From Prochloraceae cyanobacterium (GTDB lineage Bacteria > Cyanobacteriota > Cyanobacteriia > Cyanobacteriales > JASJDA01): DNA of 64,000 bases. The position numbers and the translations under genes are program-made. Below, in pieces: positions 1-30,872 of the stretch; positions within the stretch are counted from its first letter, which is position 1, and every line of letters begins with the position of its first letter. The notes under the pieces are model-generated. The model was not told the DNA's origin. It made no database searches and was given only the letters and a program-made list of their open reading frames with translations. The stretch covers positions 27,122 to 91,121 of the forward strand of contig JASJDA010000002.1 in assembly GCA_030065755.1 (NCBI GenBank), read 5' to 3'.

Positions 1-2648
1 CCTGTCAGGGTTTTGAGTTCTTCGCCTGTTTCTAAATTCCAAAGTTTAATAGTTTTATCAGCACTGCCGGAAGCAAAGAGTTTTTCTTTAGGGCTAAAAC
101 TGACACTCCAAACTGCTCCCTGATGTCCATGCCAAACCCTTTGTCGATCCCCCTGCTGATTCCATAGGCGGATCGCACCATCATTAGAACTGGTAAGCAA
201 ATATTTTCCATCAGGACTGAACTTAACGCACCAAACAGGAACTTGCTCGGCTGAAAATTGAGCTAGCTCTTTACCTTCTAAGTTCCACAGATGAATACTC
301 CCGCCAGTGGAGGCAGTAGCAAGATATTGACCGTTAGGGCTGAAATCGACACTCCTAAGTGCACTTTGTGGATGCTCTGGAAATTTTACTTTTTGATGAC
401 CTTGAAGATCCCATAAACAAACAGTTCCGTCGTCTGATGCAGTCGTAAAAAACTTTCCGTCGGGGCTAAAGTTCAATCCCCAGATCCAGTTGTGATGTCC
501 CTTGCAGATAATTGATAATTTGTCCTGCAAGTCCCACAAGCGAGCTGTACTGTCTTGGGACCCACTGGCAAGGAATTTACCATCGGGGCTGAAAGCAAGG
601 CTACAGACGGCCCCTTGATGACCTTCTAATTTGCCTGTCTCTTGAATTTTGTCCATGATTTGCTGGAGGACATTCCTTAGAGGATCTGTAGGGTAATCCT
701 GCGGCAGCAAATCGTCCGTAATATAGTTTTTTAGCTTTTCTCCAGCCCATACAATCCTCTCTAATCCATCTAATTGCGAAATATCGAGGAATTCTTGCCA
801 TGCTTGGGTATCTACCTGACTCAAATTTTGTATAGCTTCAAGTTTGTTACGATTTCTGTTTTTCCAGTAGTCATTGTGCCACTCTAGAATGACCGGAGCG
901 AGTAGATCGTGAAAGATTTCATAGCATAAGAGGTTGGGATTGTCCTTAGAGATAACCGGATTTAGGAGACGTTGTTTGACCATTTCTTCTAGCACAGGTC
1001 GGAGTTCTTTTTCCTCAATCTCTGCTCGCACGGCTAAATCCTCAAAGGGATAGGCAATTTTAGTGCCTCTAGGAGTTACTAAATAGTTAACAAATTTAGC
1101 GACCACGTTTACCCATTTAGGATTGGCATTTTTAGATAGCTCTTCCATTTTTTCCTTGAAGTAGTTCTTGAGAACTGCTTTTGCCCCTCCCAATTTCTCT
1201 AATGTTTCCAAACGCAGTTGGCGGGATTTTTTGTTCATTTCTACTTCCCACAAGCGTTGCATCAGCACTTGCAGGTAAGAAGATTGAAATGTTCTCGGCT
1301 TAGATAAAGTTATTGTCTCCTCATCCCTACTCCCATGTCTATTCTGATGCCAGGTTTCGAGGGCAATTTCTTCTAGGATGCGCTCGACTAGTGCTGGCTC
1401 GATACCAATTTTTCGCTCCTGAGGTTGGCGATTGTAGACCTTATAGATAGGATTGAGGATCGCGTCGCAGGCGGACTGCTCGTCGAGAGGCTCAAGCTCT
1501 AATCGGTTATCTAGGATGTTAGGGATCGCAACTTTAAAGCGATCGAGTTTAGCTATCCAATCCTCGCGTATCGAGATGAGGAAATTAACCCCTAGTCCAA
1601 GACAGTTAACTGCCTTGGGAAACTCTATCTCGAACGTTCCTTCTGCCTCTTCTGGTTGGGCATGGTACAGGAAATACTCCTCAAACTGATCCAAAATGAT
1701 AAACAGTGTCCCGTCTTCTCCTTCTTCACCGAGGAACTTTGTACACACCTGTCTCCAGATGCGATGCAGAATGATACGCAAATTCCAGAAGCTAGGGCTA
1801 TATCCTAGAAACCAGAGTTTGCGGTCAGAGCTTCGAAGTTGACCAAAAAGGTTGGCGGAAAGTAGCTTGTCAATATTTTTATTGGTTAAGTAATCAATAA
1901 AATCGTCTTCGGCAACAGTAAATTTTTCTTCACCTTGAACACTTTTAACTCCCCCATAAAGTTTGACGATCACTGGACGCTCTTGGGGTAAATTCTTTTC
2001 ATACTCCTTGGGATCGACAATAGGAGTAATTTGACCTTCGGCAAAAGACATATACTCGAATTTACCCCCCTCTTCATTGCCAATAAACGCTACTAGATAG
2101 AAAGGTTGTTGCGCGTCTATAAATGCCTGTTCCAGAACACTGTCCAAACAGGTGGTCACTATTAGGGGATAAGGAGGAGCATAGCGCTTTTTCCGCAGAA
2201 TGCTAGGCAGTTTTGCCAAGAATTTGTGAACTGAGTTGGGTTGATAAGACGATGGTAGTTTTACAATGTCTTCAAGCATTAGCTCAAGGGTACCTGGAGC
2301 AGATATAGCCAGGTATTGGGAGACCTCGGTGAGAGCTATCCTCGTAATAGCATCTCTGTTTATGGGACATTCTGAGGGCAAATCTTGTACTGCTTCAGAG
2401 CATAGAGGACAAGTAATATGCTCAATATAGCGATGTTCTGATTTCTTCGCTAAGTAAACAGCCAGCTCAAAACGACTGGGAGGATAGTTACCCTCTTTCC
2501 AGTCAACAGGTTGTCCATTAGGTTTTCTTGGACGACCACAAAGGTTAACATCTGAACTAAGAACGGGAACGATCGTTCCTTGCGTAATAGCGTCAACTAC
2601 TAACTTGTAGTGTCCTCTATCGACAGAGTGAGCAGGATCGGAAATCAT
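1..2648 (-). CDS. SIR2-like domain / STAND-like helical region / WD40-repeat protein (partial; C-terminus lies beyond position 1)
   Basis: Absent from the ORF track because no stop codon lies in the window. Manual minus-strand translation from ATG ~2648 (GAGGAGG 8 nt upstream) stays open to position 1. N-terminus: MISDPAHSVDRGHYKLVVDAITQGTIVPVLSSDVNLCG, PLIVTTCLDSVLEQAF, VIVKLYGGV, LWFLGYSPSFWNLRIIL (SIR2_2/ThsA-like layout). Then LFIILDQFEEYF (Walker-B-like). The last ~200 aa are WD40 blades (GHQGAVCSLAFSPDGKFLASGSQDSTARLWDL ... ASGSADKTIKLWNLETGEELKTLTG). Confidence 0.75.
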   Translation of the reverse strand, partial: MISDPAHSVDRGHYKLVVDAITQGTIVPVLSSDVNLCGRPRKPNGQPVDWKEGNYPPSRFELAVYLAKKSEHRYIEHITCPLCSEAVQDLPSECPINRDAITRIALTEVSQYLAISAPGTLELMLEDIVKLPSSYQPNSVHKFLAKLPSILRKKRYAPPYPLIVTTCLDSVLEQAFIDAQQPFYLVAFIGNEEGGKFEYMSFAEGQITPIVDPKEYEKNLPQERPVIVKLYGGVKSVQGEEKFTVAEDDFIDYLTNKNIDKLLSANLFGQLRSSDRKLWFLGYSPSFWNLRIILHRIWRQVCTKFLGEEGEDGTLFIILDQFEEYFLYHAQPEEAEGTFEIEFPKAVNCLGLGVNFLISIREDWIAKLDRFKVAIPNILDNRLELEPLDEQSACDAILNPIYKVYNRQPQERKIGIEPALVERILEEIALETWHQNRHGSRDEETITLSKPRTFQSSYLQVLMQRLWEVEMNKKSRQLRLETLEKLGGAKAVLKNYFKEKMEELSKNANPKWVNVVAKFVNYLVTPRGTKIAYPFEDLAVRAEIEEKELRPVLEEMVKQRLLNPVISKDNPNLLCYEIFHDLLAPVILEWHNDYWKNRNRNKLEAIQNLSQVDTQAWQEFLDISQLDGLERIVWAGEKLKNYITDDLLPQDYPTDPLRNVLQQIMDKIQETGKLEGHQGAVCSLAFSPDGKFLASGSQDSTARLWDLQDKLSIICKGHHNWIWGLNFSPDGKFFTTASDDGTVCLWDLQGHQKVKFPEHPQSALRSVDFSPNGQYLATASTGGSIHLWNLEGKELAQFSAEQVPVWCVKFSPDGKYLLTSSNDGAIRLWNQQGDRQRVWHGHQGAVWSVSFSPKEKLFASGSADKTIKLWNLETGEELKTLT

Positions 2649-3084
2649 CTTAACTTACCTCCTCAAGCTAATTTCTCGCTATCCAAAAGGCATTTTGACG
2701 AAATACACTTGGGCCTAACAACACTTTGCAGAAGTAGAATTACCGCTTTTGAGGTTAAAATTATTGGCACCAAACAGTGACTAAGCAAGAAATTGTATCT
2801 TCACAGTTTGGTCGAACACCTCACAGCAGAGCATTCTGGTAAAAGTTACCTCGTCTTGATAGAGATAATTTTGAGGGGTTTTTCAGACAGTTTTCTGCTT
2901 AATTCCTTAAGATTTCCAACTTGCTCCCATAGATCGAGATTGCTTTCACCCTGCTCAGCAATTGGACTGAGCCAAAAATGTCATTCCAACTTTCTAACTT
3001 TCCTACCTTAATTGTATTAAGGGATGAAGATTTAACCATAATTAGGATGGGTCAAAATTAATATTTCTTTGCAGAGAGTCAAGA

Positions 3085-4260
3085 TTAACGCTTCTTAAGA
3101 CGTAAAGAAACATGAATAATATTTTTCAAGGAAGCAGAAATATCTGAATGTTCCCCTTCAGATATTACCTTAAAAATAGACAAAGACCCAGGATAGAAAA
3201 TGGGGCATACTTGGTCTGTAAACAGACAGGAAAAAATTGCTAGTTCTTCAAGTAAATATTTACGGCACATTTCTCCATAAAAATTGAAGGAATTGTTCTG
3301 CTCATTTAGGTGAATGTGGCGATTGACAAACTCCCTAGAAAATGATTGAATTGATTTGGCAAATCTTTCATTTTTGGCAAACAAATCTTGTAATTGTTCG
3401 TAGTAATTTTCATATTCTTTCAATTGTTTGACTTCAGAGCAATAGACAAACTGAAAATTACAGGCATCGGCATGGCATCGAAAGACAGTCATTTCAGTAT
3501 TGATATACTCTTTACCCATTAAAATTGCCTGAGTTAGTGCTTGTTTTTCGTTTAGTCCCCGATCGATTTGCAGAGTAATCCGATGTAAGCTATCCCCCAC
3601 CAGGACGATACACTTTTGAAAACGATTCGCTATCCAATCCGCGATCGCCACTAATTTGGCAGTTGAAAAGTTAGGATTTTGCAAACTGATTCCCAAGAAA
3701 CAACTATTGTAATTTTCTAGATGCTGTCGAGCATTTGAGGGAGAAACCTTGTCGATCAATACTCGATATCTTGACTTTGTGGGGATTGTTCTTTTCTCAT
3801 TAACCTTTAATAATCTCCGAAAATCGGCCCACTCCATTGTTAATAAATTTCTATAAGAATCCAGATATAACTTTATCTCTCGATTGTCTTCCAAATCCCT
3901 GGCTAATAGGACATCTACACCATAAATCTCTCCCATCGGCAGAATTGTACCTAATTCACAATCGGGAAAGAATTTCTCAACTTCTGATGAGTCAAGCAAT
4001 CTAACTTGTCGTGTCCCTAAATCTTGTCGTAGGGACTCAATATCGATGGTTAGACTAGCAGGCAAAACAGCCATCACTATTTGAGAATTGTCAATTTCTA
4101 GAAATACCGCTTCTACTAACTCCATCCCTAACATATTTTTATAGTTTTCCAACTCTTGGAGAGTATGGGCAGGTGAATAGCTAGTAACTATGTATTTCAC
4201 CTTATGGCTGTCTAGAAGTTCTTGAAGTCTTGGCATTTGCATAGGACAGAAAAGAAGCAC
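3085..4260 (-). CDS. YbaK/ProX-type tRNA-editing domain fused to a cyclodipeptide synthase (CDPS)
   Basis: ORF track, 391 aa. N-terminal ~150 aa carry a tRNA_edit-like signature (VMAVLPASLTIDIESLRQDLG ... FFPDCELGTILPMGEIYGVDVLL). C-terminal ~225 aa carry CDPS landmarks: CFLGISLQNPNFS (cf. AlbC LIGISAGNSYFS), RKYLLEELAIF (cf. AlbC NYVLAEAPLF), PIFYPGS (cf. AlbC LCYHID). The true start may be Met7/Met9 (~4242/4236). Confidence 0.8.
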   Translation of the reverse strand: MLLFCPMQMPRLQELLDSHKVKYIVTSYSPAHTLQELENYKNMLGMELVEAVFLEIDNSQIVMAVLPASLTIDIESLRQDLGTRQVRLLDSSEVEKFFPDCELGTILPMGEIYGVDVLLARDLEDNREIKLYLDSYRNLLTMEWADFRRLLKVNEKRTIPTKSRYRVLIDKVSPSNARQHLENYNSCFLGISLQNPNFSTAKLVAIADWIANRFQKCIVLVGDSLHRITLQIDRGLNEKQALTQAILMGKEYINTEMTVFRCHADACNFQFVYCSEVKQLKEYENYYEQLQDLFAKNERFAKSIQSFSREFVNRHIHLNEQNNSFNFYGEMCRKYLLEELAIFSCLFTDQVCPIFYPGSLSIFKVISEGEHSDISASLKNIIHVSLRLKKR

Positions 4261-4786
4261 TGTTATATACTATGAAGATAAAACTAACTCCCAAAGAGCG
4301 CGGGTGTGTCATTGAATAATATAGTCTATCTCTTGACAAAAGTTAGAATCAAATAAATTAATCCATAGTGCATGATTTAAATTAGTTTGATTTGTACAAT
4401 AACCAAGAGTTTTCTGATGTAGATATCAAATTATTTGTCTTGAAGTGAGATTAAATCTTTCAATATAAGACCTATTGTGAGTACCAGATGCAAAATCTTT
4501 TTCCGTTCCTTTTATCCAGAATTTTGCTACAGTTGTAAGCTTTCTTTTAAACCTTTTCTTTACTATTTGTAGGTATACATAATTGATAGATTGCATATTT
4601 CTCGATCGCTTACAAAGAGGAAAATCCGATCTATCTTAGCAAACCCTTATCCTATATAAACTTCTTTCATGTAATGCTCTTACATATTTTTTTTGTCCCT
4701 CGCCCTCTCAACTGTATTAGTTTGTAGGGACTACCGCCATTCAAACTCGTTAACCCAACGAAACTTTAAATGAGGAAATTAAAACC

Positions 4787-5923
4787 ATGAGTAACTTAGA
4801 AGCCTTAACTAAACCCAAAACCTCTCAACCCAAACTTCTGGCCCTCGATGGTGGCGGTATTCGCGGTATTATCACCGTGGAAGTTTTAGCTGAAATAGAA
4901 AAAATCCTGCAAAAAGATCTGGGGCAAGATGACAGTTTTGTCTTAGCCGATTACTTTGACTATATTGCTGGCACTAGTACGGGAGCCTTTATTGCTGCTT
5001 GTTTATCTTGGGGAATGGGTGTAAATGAGATCCGCAAGTTTTACATTTATAGTGGCAAACGGATGTTTGATAAAGCTAGCATATTCAAAGCATTAAAATA
5101 CAAATATAAAGATAAACAACTGACAAAGCAACTTAAATCGATATTTGGAGAGGAAACTCTTGGAAGCGAACGACTTAAAACATTACTGATGATGGTACTG
5201 AGAAATGCCACTACAGATTCTCCTTGGCCCATTTCAAATAACCCTCATGCTAAATATAACCAGCGTAGTCAAGAAGAAGGTGGTAACCTGTATTTCCCTT
5301 TGTGGCAACTTGTGCGTGCCAGCACCGCAGCTCCTACTTTTTTCTCTCCTGAAGTAATTGATATTAATGATGGAGAACCTTTTGTATTTGTCGACGGTGG
5401 CGTTACTTCTTTCAACAACCCTGCTTTTCAACTATTTTTGATGGCAACGACTGAACCCTACCACCTAAATTGGGATGTAGGTGAAGAGAAAATGCTTTTA
5501 GTTTCTGTCGGCACAGGTATGACTCCTGAGGCCAACAAAAATCTTGAGCCAGATGAAATGAATTTAATTTACAACGTTAAATCTGTTCCTGCTGCTTTAA
5601 TGTATGCTTCTCAAGTTCAGCAAGATTTCCTTTGCCGAGTGTTTGGTAAATGTCTTGCTGGAGATCCTATCGATCGCGAAATTGGGGACATGATCGGCAA
5701 AAAAGCACCAGGAAATTCAAAGCTATTTACTTATGTTCGTTATAATGCTGAACTGTCTCGGGCTGGATTAGATGAGTTGGGTTTAAAAGATATTCAAGAA
5801 AAAAAAGTCCAAGCCATGGATTCGGTGGAACATATCGACCAACTCCAGAAAGTTGGAAGAGCGATCGCAGACCAAAAAGTCAAAGAGGATCACTTTAAAG
5901 GTTTTCTAGTAAGACATAAATAA
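4787..5923 (+). CDS. patatin-like phospholipase
   Basis: LALDGGGIRG (oxyanion hole), AGTSTGAF (GXSXG nucleophile) and FVFVDGGV (Asp-Gly-Gly) occur in canonical order. 378 aa. Confidence 0.85.
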   Translation: MSNLEALTKPKTSQPKLLALDGGGIRGIITVEVLAEIEKILQKDLGQDDSFVLADYFDYIAGTSTGAFIAACLSWGMGVNEIRKFYIYSGKRMFDKASIFKALKYKYKDKQLTKQLKSIFGEETLGSERLKTLLMMVLRNATTDSPWPISNNPHAKYNQRSQEEGGNLYFPLWQLVRASTAAPTFFSPEVIDINDGEPFVFVDGGVTSFNNPAFQLFLMATTEPYHLNWDVGEEKMLLVSVGTGMTPEANKNLEPDEMNLIYNVKSVPAALMYASQVQQDFLCRVFGKCLAGDPIDREIGDMIGKKAPGNSKLFTYVRYNAELSRAGLDELGLKDIQEKKVQAMDSVEHIDQLQKVGRAIADQKVKEDHFKGFLVRHK

Positions 5924-7323: not shown

Positions 7324-9252
7324 TTAAATTCGGATAGTACCCCCGTCAAATAAAGGTACGGTCATAGTAAAATTCTCGCCATAAGTAAGTTTTTGCTCTT
7401 CTAAAATACCGATAGCGATCTTTTCTCCGAGGCGCAGAGATTCGATATAATCCGTAAAGTAGTGTACTCCTGCCCAGTTACGACCGATCGAAATATTAGC
7501 TGCAATTTTATTTAGTTCTCCTTCAACAGTTAAAGGTTCTGCGATCGTGACCTGATTCAATCCATTACCATTTTCATTGGGTTCGTAGGCAATATATCGC
7601 TCTTCTTGTTTGCCGAAATTAAGTTCAAAGCCGCTATCGAAAAATGCTTTGAGCATGGTAACGCAAGCCCCAGCTACTGTTGCGTGTCCCGCACCATAAC
7701 TGGGATGCATTGGCGAACCTTCTGGAAAAGCCATAGGTAAGAAGTAATTATTTACGCCATTATCATCATCGTCATCGTCGTCATCGTCATCATCATCATC
7801 ATTATTACTACTATTTTGAGAAAGATTGTATTCTGCAACTAGATCCAACAAACTTTTATCTCCCAATAATTTCTCGTCTAAAGCCTCAACTAGCTTAGCG
7901 AGGGGTTTTAGTTCGCGATCGGTACCAATGCCTTTTTTATAGCGATCGATTAAACCAGCTAATGCCTCTGGTCGCAAGCGACGATGAACGTTAAACTTTT
8001 GATAGCGGACGGCTTTTAAGGCCCTAGTAGCTACTTCGCAGACTAAACTTAAAATCTGGGGAGCGCCAAATTGAGCAAAACCTTGCTGTTTGTCTTCTAC
8101 ATCTGGTTTTTGGAAAGGAATACCAGGATCGAAAGGGACTCCCATTCCCAACATAATCAAACAAGCATTGAGATAAGCTTCATAAAGCGCGTCGTAGTGT
8201 ACGTAAGTAGCTACATCTCTCGGAGTAGTAATAAAGCGATATTCATCGCCAACATAACTTTCAAGTCCGCGCAGGTCTGCACCATTCTGAACGTCCAACC
8301 AAGTCTCAAAATTGGTCATATAGTCCTGCGAAGGAGTAGCAACGCGGACTTTTTGATCGATCCGAATCGAACCATAGGTAATTAAACCGTCTTTTTGCTC
8401 TCGATCGCTGTTGTTGCTATTTATTCCTTCATTACCAATTAGCAAAAATTGAGATAGATAAGGGCCTTTTTGGTCTCCAGGTGCAATACCTCGAAAGATA
8501 TTTTGTCTTGTCACTGGCGGTCGATGACGCGCCCTTTCTAGATCGCTGAGTTCGCAACATTCCGAAGCAAACCAATTGCGACCCATAATTTTGACATTAT
8601 TTAAGATCGTAATTGCCTCTTGAACGGTTACTGGCAATTCCGTCTCATATTGTTCTCCTTCAACTGAAGAGTCTCGTAGTTGAGAAAAATGAATTTCTCT
8701 GAGTAAGGCTTGAAGATATAGTTCGGCTATTTCTGCCGCAAGTTCGACACTATCTATAGTTGGTGCCGGCGGCATAGTGACGGCTTGTGCGTCTGGCCCT
8801 TCTAAATCGAATGTTAATCCAGCACCAGCACTTTCCCAAGCACGCAGTTTTGCACCTCTGCCATCTTCAGCTTGTTTGGCTATTTCAGATTGCCAAAATT
8901 CTTGACGATTTTCAGTATCGCAAGTTATTTGTTGTTTACTCAAACAACCCGATTCTTTAGGTAGAGCGGCTGGCCCTAATGGAGTTTTCGCAAAATCTTT
9001 GGGGTCTCCCGATTGTATGCCTAAAACAAATTGCTGGTAGTCAGCGCTGTTTAATAGTAAACCAGTTTCTGGGTCGTGGGGCAAACCTTTAGTAAAATTA
9101 GCAATGTAGCTGGGTTCGTTGTTGTTCTCCCCTTTTGAACGGCGATACTTATATTCTTCTCCATTGCTTTTCTGTACTGCATGCGATCGATTTGCGGCAA
9201 TTTCAGCAGCATTATTTCTAATTTGTTGGGCTTGCTGTCTCCGATTCATCAT
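7324..9252 (-). CDS. vanadium-dependent haloperoxidase-like protein (PAP2 superfamily) with poly-Asp insert
   Basis: 642 aa. Motifs in order: KFNVHRRLRPE (K-x7-RP as in algal bromoperoxidases), PSYGAGHATVAGACVTMLKAFF (PSGH-type), GRNWAGVHYFTD (R-x5-H-x3-D). A run of 13 Asp is encoded at ~7762-7800. Confidence 0.7.
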   Translation of the reverse strand: MMNRRQQAQQIRNNAAEIAANRSHAVQKSNGEEYKYRRSKGENNNEPSYIANFTKGLPHDPETGLLLNSADYQQFVLGIQSGDPKDFAKTPLGPAALPKESGCLSKQQITCDTENRQEFWQSEIAKQAEDGRGAKLRAWESAGAGLTFDLEGPDAQAVTMPPAPTIDSVELAAEIAELYLQALLREIHFSQLRDSSVEGEQYETELPVTVQEAITILNNVKIMGRNWFASECCELSDLERARHRPPVTRQNIFRGIAPGDQKGPYLSQFLLIGNEGINSNNSDREQKDGLITYGSIRIDQKVRVATPSQDYMTNFETWLDVQNGADLRGLESYVGDEYRFITTPRDVATYVHYDALYEAYLNACLIMLGMGVPFDPGIPFQKPDVEDKQQGFAQFGAPQILSLVCEVATRALKAVRYQKFNVHRRLRPEALAGLIDRYKKGIGTDRELKPLAKLVEALDEKLLGDKSLLDLVAEYNLSQNSSNNDDDDDDDDDDDDDNGVNNYFLPMAFPEGSPMHPSYGAGHATVAGACVTMLKAFFDSGFELNFGKQEERYIAYEPNENGNGLNQVTIAEPLTVEGELNKIAANISIGRNWAGVHYFTDYIESLRLGEKIAIGILEEQKLTYGENFTMTVPLFDGGTIRI

Positions 9253-20986: not shown

Positions 20987-23900
20987 TTATTGCTGTTTTA
21001 GTATCACCAAAGTAATATCATCAAATACTTTTTGTTTGCCAATAAATTCTCTGAGATCGTCAATAACTGCTTGTTTAATCTCTTGGGCGCTAAACTGCCA
21101 ATTTTGACTAATAACCTCACAGAGTCTATCCATCCCGTATTGTTTTTTCTCCAAATCGAAAGCTTCGGGGATGCCATCAGTATACAGAACTACCCCATCA
21201 CCAGGATGTAACTCAACCACAGTGCGATCGATAAAATCAGCAATATCGTCATCTAGACCGATGGGTAAGCCTAAATCCATTGTGTCAATGCGTTCGATAT
21301 GACCTCCAGCACGGACTACAAGGGTTTCTTCATGTTGTCCGCTGATGCTAACTTTCCCCTCTGAGTAGTTCAGAATGGCTAAGGTTAGATTTTTATCAGA
21401 GTTCATCCGTTGCACGTTGCGATAGATCGTGCGGTTTAGGGTATCTAAGAACCTGACAGGATCGTACTCGCGAATTTCTTGCAAGGTACGCACTGCGGTT
21501 TGGGTCATCAGCATTAAGAGACCACTTTCTAAACCGTGCCCTGTTACGTCGCCAATGCCCAGAGTAATAATGCCATCCATCTGCAGCACGTCATAGTAGT
21601 CTCCGCCTATTTCATCTGCTGGTTCCATAAATCCAGCGATATCCAGACCGTCAACGCTTTCCAATTCTTCAGGTTTGGGCAAAATCATTTGTTGAATCTG
21701 TCGAGCTATGTCGAGTTCTGCCCCCAGGCGCAAGTTTTCGATCTTGAGTTTTTCATTGAGTTGGGTGATTTCGGCGTTAGCAGCAGCCAGTTGGGTGGTG
21801 CGTTCGGCGACTTTATCTTCTAGGGTTTGATAGAAGCGAGCATTTTTGATAGATATTGCTGCTTGGGTGGTGATGAGTTTGAGGACTTGAATGTGGTCTG
21901 AGGTAAAAGCTTCTGTGGTGAGGTTATTTTCGAGGTAGAGAATGCCGAGTAGTTCTCCCTGATTGAGAATAGAGGTGCAGAAGAGACTTTTAGGTTGCTT
22001 TTGAATGAGATATGGGTCTCCCGTAAAGGTCTTGTCTTGTTCGACGTTGTTGAGGAGCAGAGGCTGTTGAGTTCGTTTGACGGTGTTGATAATGGTACTG
22101 GGTAAAGTGTCGATTCGATCGAGAGAAGTGGTGAATATGTGACAGTCGCTGTTATCGCATTGGGCGACGACTTCCCAAGTACCGGAGTTGTTTAAAATTA
22201 AAACTACTGTATCGGCTCCAGCATTTTCGATGACGACGTGCATCAATTTAGAGAGCAAGGCATTGATTTCGATTTCCCCAGAGAGAGCTTGGGAGGCTTT
22301 GATAGCGCAGGCGAGATCGAAAACGGAGCTAGTGGTTGTAACTGTGCCGAGGTGTTGGGGAGAGGTTAGGGGATTGCTAAAATTGAGGGAGGATTGGGGT
22401 TGTTGGAGGATGGGGGTAAGGAGTTGAGGATATTTTTGTTCGAGTTGGTTGACCTTGGCTTTGGCTCCCCAACGGGCATAGCAATAGTAAGCTTCCTGCA
22501 TATAGGCAGCAGCTACTTTTTCTTTACCCCAAGCTAGGTAGAATTTGGCGACTAATTCGTTGGCTAAAGCTTCTTCTTGGATGTAGCCATTTTCTTTGGC
22601 TCCGGCAATGGCGCGATCGTACATTTCGATCGCTTCTAGTTTTTCTCCCAAAACTCGATTTTGCTCGGCCTCGACCAGATAAAATTTATGGAGATGATTC
22701 ATCGGGGCATGGCGGGCCCAAATTCTCATTTTTTCTCGATCGGCAGCTATTTTTGCCAAAATTTTATCTTGCTCGGATTTGGCGACACGGGGATAGATTG
22801 CCAATCGGGTCAGAGAATCGTATAAATGAAAGACTGGAACGGCAAGCGCTGCTGTTACCGTGCCTAAATACTCTGCGGCTCGATCGCTATGGGTTAGAGC
22901 TAGATCGAACTCCTCAAATAGATAGCAAAGGATAAGTTTATTTAAGTACAAATAGTGCAGTCCGTACCCGTTATTATTTGCTAAATAAATCGGTAGCAAT
23001 CGCTCTTCATCGATCGCCTCCCCAACTAAACGAGAGGGATTGTCAGACTTGCCCGTCAAATTCAAAGCTGTCTGCCGAGTCACTTCAACTAAATTGACTC
23101 CCATGTTTTGCTGAAGTCGCTCTAGATCTTGACTCCAAATCTTCATTTCCCGTTCGAGAGAGGTGAGTTCCTTGCCTGTAAACAGGGAATACTGACAGAT
23201 TTTGAATGCCGTATAGCCAGCCCATTCAAACTCTCCCGATTCTACCCCGCATTGATATCCCCACCGCAGAGGATCGAGTACTTTTCGGGCGTGGTCTTTC
23301 CAATGAAGGAGGAAGCCTTCAACCATATCCAATGTCCGAGCCTGAATCGCTTGGGCGTTAAATTTGTCAAGCAAACTCAAGGCTAATTTGCCAAATTGAT
23401 AGCCAGATTCAATGTCGCCGATCGTCCCGCACAGAATAACGCCGTAAACCCCATAAGCAAAAGCCGACCAAGGAGAATTTCCGTATTGGACGGACAATTT
23501 TACTTTTTCTAAGACCAGGAGCGGCATGAGGTCGGGAATAGATACGTAAACTGGAGCGAATAAACTCGATAAAACGCTCATTGTTGCCAATTTATGAGGA
23601 TCGGTCATTTCTGGCAAGTCGATCGCCGCTGAAGGGTTCTTCCCCGTCGAAGTTGACATGACTTCCTTCAATCCGCGCTGAAGATCTGACGGTTTCGGAC
23701 GTTCGGGAAAATTTGTTCCTAAAAGTTTTAGGGCTTGCAATCCAATTTCGATCCCTTCCTGCAACCTGTTTTGCGAAGCATAGGCTGTAATTTTAATTTC
23801 ATAAATTTTAACTTTTTCAAGAGTTGTTTCTGCCTGTTTCAAGACAACGTCTGCCCAGATTTCCATTTGCTCGAAGTTGCCGTTTAGGTACGCTACTTCT

Positions 23901-26311
23901 GTAGCTAATTTGTAGAGCGATAGGGTGAGGTCGTATTGATTCTGCCAACAATCGATGTCTAGAAGTTCTATTCCTACGGTTAAATAGGTTTTGGCAGCCC
24001 CATAAGCTGTAGCAACTTTGGCTTTCCGTCCAGCGATTAAATTTAATCGAGCGAGTTCTTCTCGGTCTGTCAGCTGAGGAATTAATTCTACTGCCATATT
24101 TAATTGATTGACAATATCAAAAATTTTCTCTTCTTGCTCTGCTTCTGGGGTATTCCTTAAAAGAAGTCTGCCAATTTTGAGGTGAGTGGACTGTTTCTGA
24201 GATTCAGGAATGAGAAAATAGGCAGCTTGTTGAACGCGATCGTGCAAAAAACGGTAACTGACTGAAACCGATCCGGTCTCTGTTTCCTTGTTTGGTTCTC
24301 CTTGGAAAAACTTATAGGTTTCAGTTTCGGGAATAACCAATCCCTCTGGCAAAGCTTGCCATAAATACCTGGCTACTTCCTCTTGGGTTTCCTCACATAC
24401 GATCGCCAAGGTCTCTAAATCAAATCGATTGCCAATGCAAGCTGCTAGTTTTAATACTTTCTGAGTCTCCTCTGGCAGTTTATGCAACCTTCCCACCATG
24501 AATTCCACCACATCTTCGGTGAGAGCCAACTGACGGACTTTCGGCAGATTCCACAGCCAATATCCTACCTCAGCATCAAATCGAATACACTTCTCCTCGT
24601 GCAATCCTTGCAAAAATTGAGTCGTAAAAAATGGATTGCCCTGTGTCTTTTGATAGACTAATTCAGATAATGGCGTAGCGACTTTTACCGAACACTGCAA
24701 GGTATCGGCAATCAAACGAGTAATATCTATATCCCCCAAAGGGGTAAGGGTAAGAGTATTGAGCTTCGATCCCTGTTTCTGAATTTCCTTCAGCGTCAGC
24801 ATTAACGGATGGGCGGGAAATACCTCATTATCCCGATAGGCTCCCAACATCAGTAAATAACCCGCTGCCGATTCGTCCATCAACAACTTCAGTAGATTTA
24901 ACGAAGCCGAATCTACCCACTGCAAGTCGTCGAGAAAAATGACGAGAGGATGCTCTTTGGTGGTGAAGATACGAACAAACTTGCCAAACAACAAATTGAA
25001 GCGATTCTGTGCTGCACTGCCAGAGAATTCTGGTACGGCTGGCTGTTTGCCAATGATGCGTTCGAGTTCTGGAATTACCTCGATTAGTATTTGACCATTT
25101 TCCCCCAGAGCTTCGAGGATTTTCGTTTTCCAGGTGGCTAGTTGGGCATCTGACTCCCCCAGCAATTGCCCCATTAAGTCTCGGAAGGCTTGCACGAAAG
25201 CTGAAAAGGGAATGTTCCGATTAAACTGGTCAAATTTACCTTGAATGAAATAGCCTCGCTGTCGGACAATGGGTTTGTGAACTTCGTTAACAACAGCAGT
25301 CTTGCCAATTCCTGAAAACCCAGCCACCAGCATTATTTCTGTTGTACCATTGGCAACCCGCCAGAAGGCATCTAGCAGGGTTTGCACTTCAGTTTCCCGT
25401 CCGTAGAGTTTTTCGGGAATCATGAAGCGATCGCACAAATCCCTCTCCCCAAGCTGGAAAGAGTTTATTTCTCCTTTGGCTTGCAACTGTTGCCAACATC
25501 GCTCTAGATCGTGCTTCAAACCCAAGGCGCTCTGATAGCGATGTTCGGCATTCTTCTCCATTAACTTGAGAACGATCGCCCGTAACACGTCCGGAACTGC
25601 TGACTGGGCAATGCTCGCAGGAAATTCTGCCGATCGGGCAATATGGCAATGCACCAACTCCATCGGATCCCTACTTGTAAAGGGTAAGGTTCCCGTCAGA
25701 AGTTCAAAAAATGTCACTCCTAGGCAATAGAAATCCGTGCGGTAGTCTATCCCTCGGTTCATGCGTCCAGTTTGCTCTGGAGATATGTAGGCAAGAGACC
25801 CTTCCAGGAGATTTGGGTTGGTGAGTTGCTGCTGCTCTTTGGGCAGCAAACTGGAGATACTAAAGTCGATCAGTTTTACCAAGCGGGTTTCGGGGTGGAT
25901 GAGGATGTTGCTTGGTTTGATGTCTTTGTGAATGATGCGCTTTTGGATGAGGTAATGCAAAACTTCGCTCAGTTGAGTGGCAATTGCCAAGAATTCGCTG
26001 AGAGAACGGGGGGACTTTTGCCAATAGTCCCAGAGGGGGATCTCACCTTCATCCTTCATTACCAGAGCATAACCATTACCATAGTTTTCTAGGGCCAGGG
26101 GTTGAACGATCGTGGGATGTTCCAGAAGACGGGCGATCGAGTATTGGTTGCGGAATTGGACTAACTCATTGACGTTGGGGTGGGGGTTGCGTAGAATTTT
26201 GACGATCGCGGGTTGCCGATCTATAGTTCGGATGGCTCGATAAACAAGGGTGTTGGTTCCAACATAGATTTGGTTAGTTTCTTGATAATTAGGAAGGTTA
26301 AGCATCTTCAA
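20987..26311 (-). CDS. multidomain Ser/Thr kinase - AAA ATPase - TPR - GAF - PP2C (SpoIIE/RsbU-type) phosphatase
   Basis: 1774 aa. HKDIKPSNIL and SPEQ (kinase), VAGFSGIGKTAVVNE (P-loop), long helical-repeat region, GAF (LGILYLEN), coiled coil, C-terminal GDVTGHGLESGLLM ... LYTDGIPEA (PP2C/SpoIIE). Confidence 0.85.
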   Translation of the reverse strand: MKMLNLPNYQETNQIYVGTNTLVYRAIRTIDRQPAIVKILRNPHPNVNELVQFRNQYSIARLLEHPTIVQPLALENYGNGYALVMKDEGEIPLWDYWQKSPRSLSEFLAIATQLSEVLHYLIQKRIIHKDIKPSNILIHPETRLVKLIDFSISSLLPKEQQQLTNPNLLEGSLAYISPEQTGRMNRGIDYRTDFYCLGVTFFELLTGTLPFTSRDPMELVHCHIARSAEFPASIAQSAVPDVLRAIVLKLMEKNAEHRYQSALGLKHDLERCWQQLQAKGEINSFQLGERDLCDRFMIPEKLYGRETEVQTLLDAFWRVANGTTEIMLVAGFSGIGKTAVVNEVHKPIVRQRGYFIQGKFDQFNRNIPFSAFVQAFRDLMGQLLGESDAQLATWKTKILEALGENGQILIEVIPELERIIGKQPAVPEFSGSAAQNRFNLLFGKFVRIFTTKEHPLVIFLDDLQWVDSASLNLLKLLMDESAAGYLLMLGAYRDNEVFPAHPLMLTLKEIQKQGSKLNTLTLTPLGDIDITRLIADTLQCSVKVATPLSELVYQKTQGNPFFTTQFLQGLHEEKCIRFDAEVGYWLWNLPKVRQLALTEDVVEFMVGRLHKLPEETQKVLKLAACIGNRFDLETLAIVCEETQEEVARYLWQALPEGLVIPETETYKFFQGEPNKETETGSVSVSYRFLHDRVQQAAYFLIPESQKQSTHLKIGRLLLRNTPEAEQEEKIFDIVNQLNMAVELIPQLTDREELARLNLIAGRKAKVATAYGAAKTYLTVGIELLDIDCWQNQYDLTLSLYKLATEVAYLNGNFEQMEIWADVVLKQAETTLEKVKIYEIKITAYASQNRLQEGIEIGLQALKLLGTNFPERPKPSDLQRGLKEVMSTSTGKNPSAAIDLPEMTDPHKLATMSVLSSLFAPVYVSIPDLMPLLVLEKVKLSVQYGNSPWSAFAYGVYGVILCGTIGDIESGYQFGKLALSLLDKFNAQAIQARTLDMVEGFLLHWKDHARKVLDPLRWGYQCGVESGEFEWAGYTAFKICQYSLFTGKELTSLEREMKIWSQDLERLQQNMGVNLVEVTRQTALNLTGKSDNPSRLVGEAIDEERLLPIYLANNNGYGLHYLYLNKLILCYLFEEFDLALTHSDRAAEYLGTVTAALAVPVFHLYDSLTRLAIYPRVAKSEQDKILAKIAADREKMRIWARHAPMNHLHKFYLVEAEQNRVLGEKLEAIEMYDRAIAGAKENGYIQEEALANELVAKFYLAWGKEKVAAAYMQEAYYCYARWGAKAKVNQLEQKYPQLLTPILQQPQSSLNFSNPLTSPQHLGTVTTTSSVFDLACAIKASQALSGEIEINALLSKLMHVVIENAGADTVVLILNNSGTWEVVAQCDNSDCHIFTTSLDRIDTLPSTIINTVKRTQQPLLLNNVEQDKTFTGDPYLIQKQPKSLFCTSILNQGELLGILYLENNLTTEAFTSDHIQVLKLITTQAAISIKNARFYQTLEDKVAERTTQLAAANAEITQLNEKLKIENLRLGAELDIARQIQQMILPKPEELESVDGLDIAGFMEPADEIGGDYYDVLQMDGIITLGIGDVTGHGLESGLLMLMTQTAVRTLQEIREYDPVRFLDTLNRTIYRNVQRMNSDKNLTLAILNYSEGKVSISGQHEETLVVRAGGHIERIDTMDLGLPIGLDDDIADFIDRTVVELHPGDGVVLYTDGIPEAFDLEKKQYGMDRLCEVISQNWQFSAQEIKQAVIDDLREFIGKQKVFDDITLVILKQQ

Positions 26312-29517: not shown

Positions 29518-30872
29518 CACTCTCCTGAATAGAATTCAGGAGATTCTTGGCTCAACGACAAAACTTACCCTGACAGCTTCTCAGCAGCCAAGATAGAGGT
29601 TTCGTCTCCCCAAGCTTTAAATCCCGTATGCCCTACGGTACTCAATCCAATTAAGAGTATGTTTTTGGCTGCGTTCTTGTCTCTGTCTAAAATGCAGCCA
29701 CATTTACATTTATGGGTTCTCGTGCATAGTGTTTTAGTTACTTTTGCTCCACACTCAGAACAATTAACCGAAGTGTATTGTGGTGGAACAGCAACAGTTA
29801 TCTTACCAAACTTATACCCGAAATACTCTAACCATACTCTAAATTGATACCAACCCACGTCAGTGATTGACTTGGCAAGATGATGATTTTTGACCATATT
29901 GGCAATTCTTAAGTCTTCATAGGCGACTACATCGTTAGATGTGATTACGCACCGTGCCAATTTCACGGCATGGTCTTGACGCTGCCTACTTATCTTAAGA
30001 TGTTTGATGGCATATCTTTTTCTTGCTTTATGGTAGTTATTAGACTGAGGTTTTTTACCTTTGACATATTTTTTAGACTGGCGCCGATTCAAGCGATTGA
30101 GAGCTTTTTCTCCTTGACGATAAAATCTGGGATTCTCAATTTGATTGCCCTTGTCGTCCGTATAAAAGTGATTCAGCCCAACGTCTAAGCCAATTTCTGA
30201 GTAGGATGGCTCTATTTTTTCCTTAATATCTACATCAACTAAAAACTGACCATAATAACCGTCAGCACGTCGGACTATTCGCACTCTTTTAATTTGTTTT
30301 TCCTTGTACCAAAGTAGATTGCGAGTGCCTTTTAGCTTAACTTTGCCAATACCTTTCTGGTCAGAAAAAGTGATGTATTTTCTATCTTCTGATAACTTCC
30401 AGCCAGTAGTTTTATACTCTACTGAGCGAGAATGTTTGCGAAATTTAGGAAATCCTTTCTTGCCAGGAATATTCTTTTTGCAGTTGCTATAAAAACGAGA
30501 TATAGCGGCCCAAGCTCTGTCAGCACTTGATTGACGTGCCATAGAGTTTAATTGAGCAGCAAAAGGAAATTGAGCAGCTAAAACCTTGCAATATGCACTC
30601 AAGTCATATTTGCCCACTCCAATGTTATCCATCCAATAGCGCAAAGCTTTGTTGCGAATAAATTGAGCAGTTCTAATTGCTTCATCCATTGCCAAACACT
30701 GTTTATGCTTGGCGTATATCTTCATTTCTAAAACTAGCATATTCTTATGCTAGGATATTAGCGTAAGAATATCAAGCCATATCTATAATGGAGACTGCGG
30801 ATAAATCCCCTATCTCGTTTTCATCTCCGAAATTCTATTTCGGAGCTTTCAACTGCGTTCAACTTCCGTAAT
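29514..30872 (-). mobile_element. IS200/IS605-family tnpB-only element (approximate ends)
   Basis: Right-end hairpin tctcctgaat-tcta-ttcaggaga followed by gtgtcaa, abutting the stop codon of the upstream gene. Left-end hairpin ctccgaaat-agaa-tttcggag at ~30825-30850. No tnpA. Confidence 0.65.
29565..30740 (-). CDS. tnpB: TnpB (IS605 OrfB-type RNA-guided nuclease family)
   Basis: 391 aa. IGLDVGLNHFYTD (RuvC-I Asp), VAYEDL (RuvC-II Glu), zinc finger CSECGAKV...CKCGCILDRDKNAAKNIL (RuvC-III Asp). Confidence 0.9.
   Translation of the reverse strand: MLVLEMKIYAKHKQCLAMDEAIRTAQFIRNKALRYWMDNIGVGKYDLSAYCKVLAAQFPFAAQLNSMARQSSADRAWAAISRFYSNCKKNIPGKKGFPKFRKHSRSVEYKTTGWKLSEDRKYITFSDQKGIGKVKLKGTRNLLWYKEKQIKRVRIVRRADGYYGQFLVDVDIKEKIEPSYSEIGLDVGLNHFYTDDKGNQIENPRFYRQGEKALNRLNRRQSKKYVKGKKPQSNNYHKARKRYAIKHLKISRQRQDHAVKLARCVITSNDVVAYEDLRIANMVKNHHLAKSITDVGWYQFRVWLEYFGYKFGKITVAVPPQYTSVNCSECGAKVTKTLCTRTHKCKCGCILDRDKNAAKNILLIGLSTVGHTGFKAWGDETSILAAEKLSG

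Follow-up and report, generated by a model that had tools for sequence, protein, structure and literature searches.

A YbaK-like domain without the catalytic lysine is fused to an XYP-type cyclodipeptide synthase and encoded in a conserved block with SIR2 and nSTAND1–WD40 genes

The DNA analyzed here is a stretch of 64,000 nucleotides (the window) from contig JASJDA010000002.1 of a Prochloraceae cyanobacterium, and the gene in question lies near its start, on the minus strand. It joins an N-terminal domain of the YbaK/ProX aminoacyl-tRNA editing fold to a tRNA-dependent cyclodipeptide synthase (CDPS). A preliminary description, made from the sequence alone, had treated it as an orphan gene of natural-product type. 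We conclude with high confidence that the protein is a real fusion of a YbaK-fold domain without the catalytic Lys to an intact CDPS of the XYP subtype, and that its gene belongs to a conserved three-gene block with a SIR2 (or SIR2–TIR) gene and an nSTAND1–WD40 gene. The gene and its two domains are as follows.

3085..4242, minus strand: YbaK-like–CDPS fusion gene, 385 amino acids from ATG 4242, stop codon at 3085–3087; with the upstream GTG at 4260 as an alternative start, the length would be 391 amino acids.
3793..4242, minus strand: N-terminal YbaK/ProX-fold domain, residues 1–150 from the ATG; the catalytic-Lys position is Glu (codon 4111–4113, GAA); GxxxP loop with Gly at 3949–3951 and Pro at 3937–3939.
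3088..3777, minus strand: XYP-type CDPS domain with Ser192 (3685–3687), Tyr335 (3256–3258), Glu339 (3244–3246), and Tyr356–Pro357 (3190–3195).

The minus strand of 3085..4260 is a single unbroken open reading frame (ORF), as had been described, with 391 amino acids if the GTG at 4260 is used. Because the homologs (383–386 amino acids) begin aligning at residue 7 of this ORF, the ATG at 4242 is the likelier start. Profile searches confirmed the earlier assignment of a tRNA_edit (YbaK/ProX) domain near the N-terminus and of a CDPS in residues ~165–391. Pfam tRNA_edit (PF04073) matched residues 30–150 (E-value 3.8e-12, 46.8 bits, cut-off 25.5), Pfam CDPS (PF16715) matched residues 176–343 (E-value 2.4e-12, 47.5 bits, cut-off 27), and TIGR04539 (tRNA-dependent cyclodipeptide synthase) scored 97.3 bits against a cut-off of 45 (E-value 9e-28). 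The nearest solved chains are BcmA (9j61, E-value 7e-48) for the C-terminal part and the 152-residue Legionella protein lpg1207 (3op6, E-value 3e-24) for the N-terminal part. An AlphaFold2 model built from an alignment of 33 sequences has a mean predicted local distance difference test (pLDDT) score of 89.6 and a predicted template modeling (pTM) score of 0.89. In a Foldseek search with this model, the template modeling (TM) scores were 0.93–0.94 to BcmA 9j61, ~0.8 to 5ocd and 5mlq, and 0.68 to AlbC 3oqv, and those of the N-domain were 0.85 to 3op6 and 0.67–0.71 to Haemophilus influenzae YbaK (1dbu/1dbx), with further matches to 1vki and 1vjf. The predicted structure agrees with both domain calls, the CDPS part having the Rossmann-type fold seen in catalytic domains of class Ic aminoacyl-tRNA synthetases and in solved CDPSs.

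The CDPS motifs recognized in the preliminary description are all present: GISLQNPNFS contains Ser192, KYLLEELAIF contains Tyr335 and Glu339, and FYPGS contains Tyr356–Pro357. These residues align with Ser43, Tyr185, Glu189, and Tyr206–Pro207 of BcmA (the Ser37, Tyr178, Glu182, and Tyr202 set of AlbC). Of 64 family members, 63 keep the Ser/Tyr/Glu/Tyr-Pro set, as do all of the approximately 79 full-length fusions that could be aligned. Pro357 following Tyr356 marks the XYP subtype, as had been proposed; Pro is found here in 61 of the 64 members, and the X position is Asn195 (compare Asn46 of BcmA). BcmA (SsBcmA, 9J61; P. aeruginosa CDPS 19) is a cyclo(Leu-Ile) synthase of the same subtype that serves bicyclomycin biosynthesis, and it resembles the C-terminal 230 residues of the window protein with 37–38% identity and the same catalytic set. 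The P1 pocket for Leu (FGLGCIFI in the window) equals that of BcmA in seven of eight residues. It also matches in seven of eight the motif FGLGC[IV]F[MF] of a group whose characterized members make mainly cyclo(Leu-Ile) (cLI) or cyclo(Leu-Leu) (cLL) (supplement file 7 of Gondry 2018, PMC5816076); the last residue is Ile rather than Met/Phe. The M204L variant of BcmA stays active. The P2 pocket (FEFRGLS) differs at three to four positions; it is similar to that of BcmA (F/E/F/R/G/L/S compared with F/D/Y/K/G/F/S). Judged by these residues, the CDPS domain is intact and probably active, and it is predicted to make cyclo(L-Leu-L-Ile/Leu/Val)-type products from aminoacyl-tRNAs.

As to the N-terminal domain, a profile built from 18 N-domains of the fusion family matched 3op6 (E-value 1e-36), Escherichia coli YbaK 2dxa (E-value 1.5e-5), H. 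influenzae YbaK, and an INS domain of ProRS. Glu50, in the family motif L[IV]E[AST]V, aligns with the Lys of 2dxa, 1dbu, 5znj, and 3op6 (VYKTLLV, SFKTLLV, IAKTMIF, and LAKTVII). We take the Lys at this position (K46 in YbaK, K279 in the ProRS INS domain, and K45 in ProXp-ala) to be essential for deacylation. Among the approximately 79 alignable fusions, position 50 is Glu in 51 and Asp in three (acidic in 54), Lys in 11, and Arg in five, and it is variable in the remainder. The GxxxP loop is retained (G104-T-I-L-P108), and its Pro is invariant in alignment A2. The window domain therefore shares the fold, the Pfam family, and the GxxxP loop with the trans-editing deacylases YbaK, ProXp, and ProRS INS. 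It differs from them in the conserved Glu at the position of their catalytic Lys, in its fusion to a CDPS, and in its failure against TIGR00011, the equivalog model of the YbaK_EbsC Cys-tRNA(Pro) deacylase (22.8 bits, below the cut-off of 153.25). The replacement of the catalytic Lys by a conserved Glu, with an acidic residue in more than half of the fusions, makes the proofreading gate or deacylase suggested in the preliminary description unlikely. The ratio of nonsynonymous to synonymous substitution rates (dN/dS) of the whole gene is 0.28 against its counterpart on a sister contig (L006) and 0.31 against that of a homologous locus (L007). By domain, the values against L007 are similar, 0.30 for the N-domain and 0.33 for the CDPS domain. 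Purifying selection on the N-domain, as on the CDPS domain, argues that the former is functional, even if canonical deacylase activity is improbable. With moderate confidence, we regard the domain as a module for binding or regulation that does not hydrolyze its ligand; it might recruit tRNA or select substrates. A word-index search with the N-domain returned one match only, a fragment of 145 residues. Three tandem tRNA_edit (YbaK-like) domains akin to the fusion N-domain are found in two other proteins, P0153 (491 residues) and P0159 (448 residues).

The genomic context speaks against an orphan natural-product gene. The fusion gene adjoins SIR2 and nSTAND1–WD40 genes at 18 other cyanobacterial or metagenomic loci (L001/L009, L004, L005, L006, L007, L008, L010–L015, L017, L018, L087, L091, P0043, and P0049). 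The first partner in these relatives is a SIR2–TIR protein (~520 residues) or a calcineurin-like phosphoesterase–SIR2 protein (718 residues), and the TIR domain of the homologs is ThsB-like (E-value 5e-15). The second is an nSTAND1–WD40 NTPase of ~1100–1300 residues, which begins directly with the NTPase at its N-terminus and has no effector domain of its own. Two gene orders occur. Layout A, [Metallophos–SIR2 or SIR2][nSTAND1–WD40][YbaK–CDPS], has no TIR and is found in Nostoc NIES-4103 (an intact operon at AP018288.1, 8,099,603–8,120,754), Nostoc UHCC 0302, Anabaena WFMT, N. paludosum, Amazonocrinis, Nostoc TH1S01, N. parmelioides, a Leptolyngbyaceae metagenome-assembled genome (MAG), and a Prochloraceae MAG. 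Layout B, [YbaK–CDPS][SIR2–TIR][nSTAND1–WD40], is found at L007 and L008, in Synechococcus Tobar12 and a Synechococcus MAG, and at L087, L091, P0043, and P0049. The genes of the block are co-directional and separated by anything from a 20-nucleotide overlap to 452 nucleotides (mostly 18–120), and the flanking genes vary by locus. The block is kept down to ~35% identity, and the divergence of the CDPS and that of the nSTAND protein run in parallel (77/73%, 54/48%, and 51/35%). SIR2 or nSTAND partners were found at none of ~60 loci of stand-alone BcmA-like CDPSs (Streptomyces, Kitasatospora, Vibrio, Photorhabdus, Okeania, and others). The orphan framing was misleading. The preliminary description had missed the partner ORF directly downstream of the gene (from 2648 to past position 1, minus strand), which is composed as follows.

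2649..3084, minus strand: spacer from the CDPS gene to the partner ORF, 436 nucleotides; the first ~160 nucleotides are conserved with L007, and GAGGAGG stands just before ATG 2648.
1752..2648, minus strand: SIR2 domain of the partner gene, corresponding to residues 1–305 of the 522-residue SIR2–TIR protein of L007 (73% identity); TIR is missing entirely, as is the C-terminal end of SIR2.
1..1751, minus strand: remainder of the nSTAND1 NTPase and WD40 repeats, in frame with the SIR2 part and starting at about homolog residue 134; Walker A is deleted, Walker B (LFIILDQFEE) is kept, and the ORF runs off the window start.

In the window, the partner genes have been fused by an in-frame deletion that took out the TIR domain and Walker A. 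As seen by tblastn and direct translation, the minus-strand frame from ATG 2648 is open past position 1 for at least 882 codons and runs off the window edge; it encodes the SIR2 domain, then nSTAND1 profile positions 115–373 only, and then WD40 repeats. Relative to L007, SIR2 residue ~305 (…ILHRIWRQ) is joined straight to nSTAND residue ~134 (VCTKFLGEEGEDGTLFIILDQFEE), and the Walker A motif of L007 (GISGVGKS, residues 53–60) is absent. The full set expected of nSTAND1-type NLR-like systems (Walker A and B, sensor repeats, and effectors) is found at the homologous loci L001, L004, L005, L007, L008, L014, and L087; the window copy has no Walker A, no TIR, and a truncated SIR2. With TIR and Walker A gone from the partner fusion, the system at this locus is probably disabled; the CDPS gene is still intact. 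On sister contig L006, the patatin gene next to the fusion is 100% identical to that of the window and the CDPS gene 96% identical, and SIR2 is cut off by a TnpB element at the same point as the window junction. Within the 3′ third of the CDPS gene (window ~3085–3400; L006 from ~3140 on) and onward through the SIR2 part, identity between the two contigs declines from ~100% to ~90%; the change marks a recombination breakpoint, and such a mosaic is typical of variable loci.

The element on L006 (4796–5974) encodes a TnpB with OrfB_IS605 and Cas12f1-like TNB matches and adjoins the truncated SIR2 exactly at the deletion junction of the window. A TnpB-like ORF that is 29% identical to it lies ~27 kb away in the window (29565–30740, minus strand). 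In the spacer at 2649–3084, the sequence beyond the ~160-nucleotide 5′ part has diverged from L007. The spacer contains a short inverted repeat (GCTCAG…CTGAGC); it may be a regulatory element.

The fusion is rare: it is carried by ~60 clusters at 90% identity, or ~30 at 50%, and an exhaustive profile search of 1.84 billion representative sequences yielded ~30 full-length fusion clusters at 50% identity. The earlier claim of a novel architecture stands as far as the searchable literature goes, which holds no description of it; the architecture is not unique. The fusion clusters already carry both Pfam domains as precomputed annotations and are named just "tRNA-dependent cyclodipeptide synthase." No fusion copy was found in the plasmid, phage, and viral-contig collections. 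In every case (L001, L004, L010, L014, L007, L008, and L087), the fusion gene is AT-richer than the locus that hosts it, the extreme being Synechococcus Tobar12 (39% versus 55% GC), and this is consistent with horizontal spread. The visibly AT-rich stretch noted earlier in the window was partly borne out, more for the region 2650–4790 (35.7% GC, compared with 41.1% on average in the window; only 3.7% of segments of equal size are as low) than for the gene alone (36.9%; 15% are as low).

The same CDPS clade contains sister architectures. About 20 clusters at 50% identity have a C-terminal cyclic-nucleotide-binding domain (P0112, P0125, P0189, P0192, and ~15 more), and P0115 and P0117 (~700 residues) have an extra N-terminal region of ~340 residues ahead of the fusion-like part, which in P0117 matches a receiver domain with an E-value of 5e-5, below the Pfam cut-off. 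These relatives suggest that ligand-regulated CDPSs are a theme of the clade; the searchable literature gives no account of CDPS fusions to cyclic-nucleotide-binding or receiver domains. Among the Lys-type members, the distant P0058/L089 (3411–10812, from a metagenome) is a BcmA-type CDPS with a degenerate YbaK-like N-terminal extension, and it lies in a bicyclomycin-like cluster with five 2-oxoglutarate (2OG)-Fe(II) oxygenases, a cytochrome P450, and an MFS transporter; P0060 adjoins an Asp/Glu racemase. Genes of the bicyclomycin cluster type (2OG-Fe(II) oxygenases, P450, and transporter) were absent from the window and were present only around P0058/L089, so the earlier remark that the usual tailoring enzymes are missing nearby was correct. 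A strict rule by which acidic members would be partner-associated and Lys-type members would belong to biosynthetic gene clusters was considered and rejected, because fusions of the Glu/Asp type in Methylococcaceae have no visible partners. In two Methylocucumis loci, a gene for 157 residues lies just downstream of the fusion on the opposite strand (L030, 7676–8149; L036, 9408–9881). From its N-terminal sequence, we presume it to be similar to the TrmL-type tRNA 2′-O-methyltransferase, which acts on tRNA-Leu; the adjacency may be coincidental.

BcmA is a single-domain protein, and its gene cluster also encodes five 2OG oxygenases and a P450, whereas the window protein has an extra N-domain of 150 residues and SIR2 and nSTAND1–WD40 neighbors. 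Known multi-domain CDPSs (the NYH-type CDPS 71 with a C-terminal P450, and fusions to a methyltransferase or an ABC transporter) also have the CDPS as one domain of a larger protein; there, tailoring or transport domains are C-terminal to NYH enzymes, whereas the window protein has a tRNA-editing fold N-terminal to an XYP enzyme and its clade relatives carry regulatory modules. Fusions in the survey of Gondry 2018 (PMC5816076) are only C-terminal and on NYH enzymes, and the CDPS survey of Aravind 2010 lists stand-alone proteins only. The entry BAT53543.1 of Nostoc sp. NIES-3756 in supplement files 7 and 8 of Gondry 2018 begins at an internal Met inside the YbaK-like domain (MKYVDFEKLVNPQ), and so the N-domain was hidden by annotation and the fusion was overlooked. 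With NLR-like STAND systems (nSTAND1 clade, Kaur et al. 2021, PMC8195603; logic of the Avs or Thoeris type), the partners share the SIR2_2 domain, the ThsB-like TIR, the nSTAND1 NTPase, and the WD40 sensor repeats, and the block loci lie within islands of conflict genes in multicellular cyanobacteria. A CDPS or a YbaK-like protein belongs to none of the described systems of this kind, and the block is devoid of a SLOG, SAVED, or CARF receptor. The block does not qualify as Thoeris (ThsB TIR with ThsA of the SIR2–SLOG or Macro/TM type), as the SIR2 of the homologs is fused to TIR without SLOG, and Layout A and the window have no TIR. The searchable literature does not connect CDPSs with YbaK, with editing domains, with STAND/SIR2 systems, with phage defense, or with cyclic-nucleotide-binding domains, and the papers of Aravind on conflict systems and on nSTAND1 mention neither CDPS nor YbaK.

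We lean toward the reading that an active CDPS with a non-hydrolytic YbaK-fold module is the product of the third gene of an NLR-like conflict operon, a system that is probably disabled in the window. The XYP-type CDPS would make a cyclo(Leu-Ile/Leu/Val)-like product from aminoacyl-tRNAs, and the Lys-less YbaK-fold domain would bind the aminoacyl-adenosine end of tRNA, or a related adenosine-containing molecule, without hydrolyzing it. The block occurs in cyanobacteria and an uncultured clade, and there the fusion would work together with a SIR2 protein (fused to TIR or calcineurin) and an effector-less nSTAND1–WD40 NTPase; under control of the system, the CDPS would most likely supply a small-molecule output or consume Leu/Ile-tRNA. 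We have moderate confidence that the block functions as an NLR-like conflict system, acting in immunity or programmed death, and low confidence in any specific role of the fusion, be it a cyclodipeptide signal or antiviral output, an effector that drains aminoacyl-tRNA, or a sensor of adenosine nucleotides derived from TIR or SIR2.

Several observations weigh against this reading. The available flanks of the Glu/Asp-type fusions of Methylococcaceae (L019–L022, L030, and L036) and of L016, a second Leptolyngbyaceae copy of the fusion, contain no SIR2 or nSTAND genes, which indicates that the fusion can work alone; those of Symploca L024 contain no partners either. The surroundings of the loci are islands of conflict genes (TPR-S and patatin genes at L014, an extra TIR–nSTAND1 at L018), and some of the adjacency might therefore be an island effect. 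A reciprocal metagenome scan, from SIR2–TIR to CDPS, gave 76 of 80 loci that were TIR-only and three new full-length matches, its pattern lying in the TIR motif. The CDPS of one system (L018/P0030) lacks the N-domain, and PADLOC has no model for the fusion. Many cyanobacterial XYP-type CDPSs were reported to be inactive in E. coli (Gondry 2018, PMC5816076), the Glu of the N-domain could in principle support other hydrolytic chemistry, and the role of the CDPS in the operon is one that we purely infer.

A bolder version, which we consider rather unlikely, makes the fusion a new component of NLR-like immunity. The cyclodipeptide would be a signal, an alarm, or an antiviral compound, or tRNA consumption would report on or attack translation, with the Lys-less YbaK domain as the sensor. 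Its ligand could be, for example, a TIR/SIR2-derived 2′/3′-O-substituted adenosine nucleotide, which would resemble the aminoacyl-A76 end of tRNA. If true, the sensor or signal version would be the first link of tRNA-dependent peptide chemistry to NAD+-based immune signaling.

That the adjacency is coincidental, the fusion being an autonomous synthase of a cyclodipeptide signal or metabolite that happens to lie in conflict-gene islands with no functional tie to SIR2 and nSTAND1, is unlikely in our estimate. Such independence would suit the Methylococcaceae and L016 copies, which stand alone among housekeeping-type genes, the other unrelated conflict genes at the loci, and the state of the window itself, where the partners are broken and the CDPS gene is intact (dN/dS ~0.3). 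It is hard to reconcile with a trio that recurs at 18 other loci in two orders, co-directional, with short or overlapping gaps, unrelated flanks, and parallel divergence, and with the lack of partners at all of the ~60 control loci.

We also find it improbable that an active YbaK-type deacylase proofreads or gates the aminoacyl-tRNA substrates of the CDPS in a stand-alone secondary-metabolite pathway. The retained fold and GxxxP loop, the Lys of 3op6 (the nearest solved relative of the N-domain), and the ~16 members with Lys or Arg, among them P0058/L089 in its bicyclomycin-type cluster, would fit this model. The window protein and the other acidic members lack the Lys that we take to be essential, the TIGR00011 score is far below its cut-off, and the window has SIR2 and nSTAND neighbors and no tailoring genes. 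The proofreading model fits just the Lys-type minority of the family.

The fusion might alternatively be a toxic effector that, once activated, drains Leu/Ile-tRNA (and ATP via recharging) and halts translation beside NAD+ depletion by SIR2/TIR. Effectors that target tRNA are frequent in conflict systems, the catalytic residues are all conserved here, and an nSTAND1–WD40 protein without an effector domain of its own requires effectors to be encoded separately. Characterized CDPSs have been expressed in E. coli with no lethality reported, and they are slow enzymes and hence weak toxins; we judge this role as doubtful as that of a deacylase. Finally, that the window locus is a decaying remnant with a nonfunctional fusion gene is highly improbable: the deletion-fused partners, the TnpB of L006 at the same breakpoint, and the recombination breakpoint in the CDPS gene would suit decay, but the ORF is intact with all catalytic residues, its dN/dS values are low against both L006 and L007, and even the chimeric partner ORF has stayed open.

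On the fusion gene's other flank lie the following features.

4261..4786, no strand: AT-rich (~31% GC) intergenic region that separates the divergent CDPS fusion and patatin genes.
4787..5923, plus strand: patatin-like phospholipase, a divergent neighbor that resembles CBASS-type phospholipase effectors (PADLOC, E-value 7e-47); not a conserved member of the block.

The patatin gene was considered as a fourth member of the block and rejected, since it is adjacent only in the lineage of the window and L006 and, more loosely, in L014. No CBASS cyclase (CD-NTase) gene stands beside it in the window; its neighbors are the CDPS fusion gene and purQ/purS (identified from sequence). Upstream of the CDPS operon in Synechococcus L014 (6135–9375), a patatin with 48% identity forms a pair with a TPR-S sensor protein. 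The entire window, scanned against Rfam, gave no RNA family, and in a promoter and terminator scan of 2500–4900, sites were no more frequent than in shuffled sequences. Elsewhere in the window are a signaling protein of 1774 residues with Ser/Thr kinase, AAA_16 ATPase, GAF, and SpoIIE phosphatase domains (20987–26311, minus strand) and an ORF of 642 residues that contains 13 consecutive Asp and matches no Pfam family at an E-value of 1e-5 (7324–9252, minus strand).

CDPSs are usually viewed as stand-alone enzymes for natural-product scaffolds, and YbaK-type domains as part of translation quality control. The Lys-less N-domain, occurring in a small conserved family, is a candidate for an editing fold repurposed for binding or regulation. 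The operon partners, SIR2/TIR and STAND–WD40 proteins, are hallmarks of bacterial innate immunity and of programmed death in multicellular cyanobacteria, and the fusion may be part of a cell-defense system rather than of an antibiotic pathway. Taken together, the fusion, the operon, and the sister proteins with cyclic-nucleotide-binding and receiver domains suggest a class of signal-regulated CDPSs, which may also explain why cyanobacterial XYP-type CDPSs were inactive and N-terminally mis-annotated in earlier screens, and a possible role of cyclodipeptides or aminoacyl-tRNA consumption in conflict systems.

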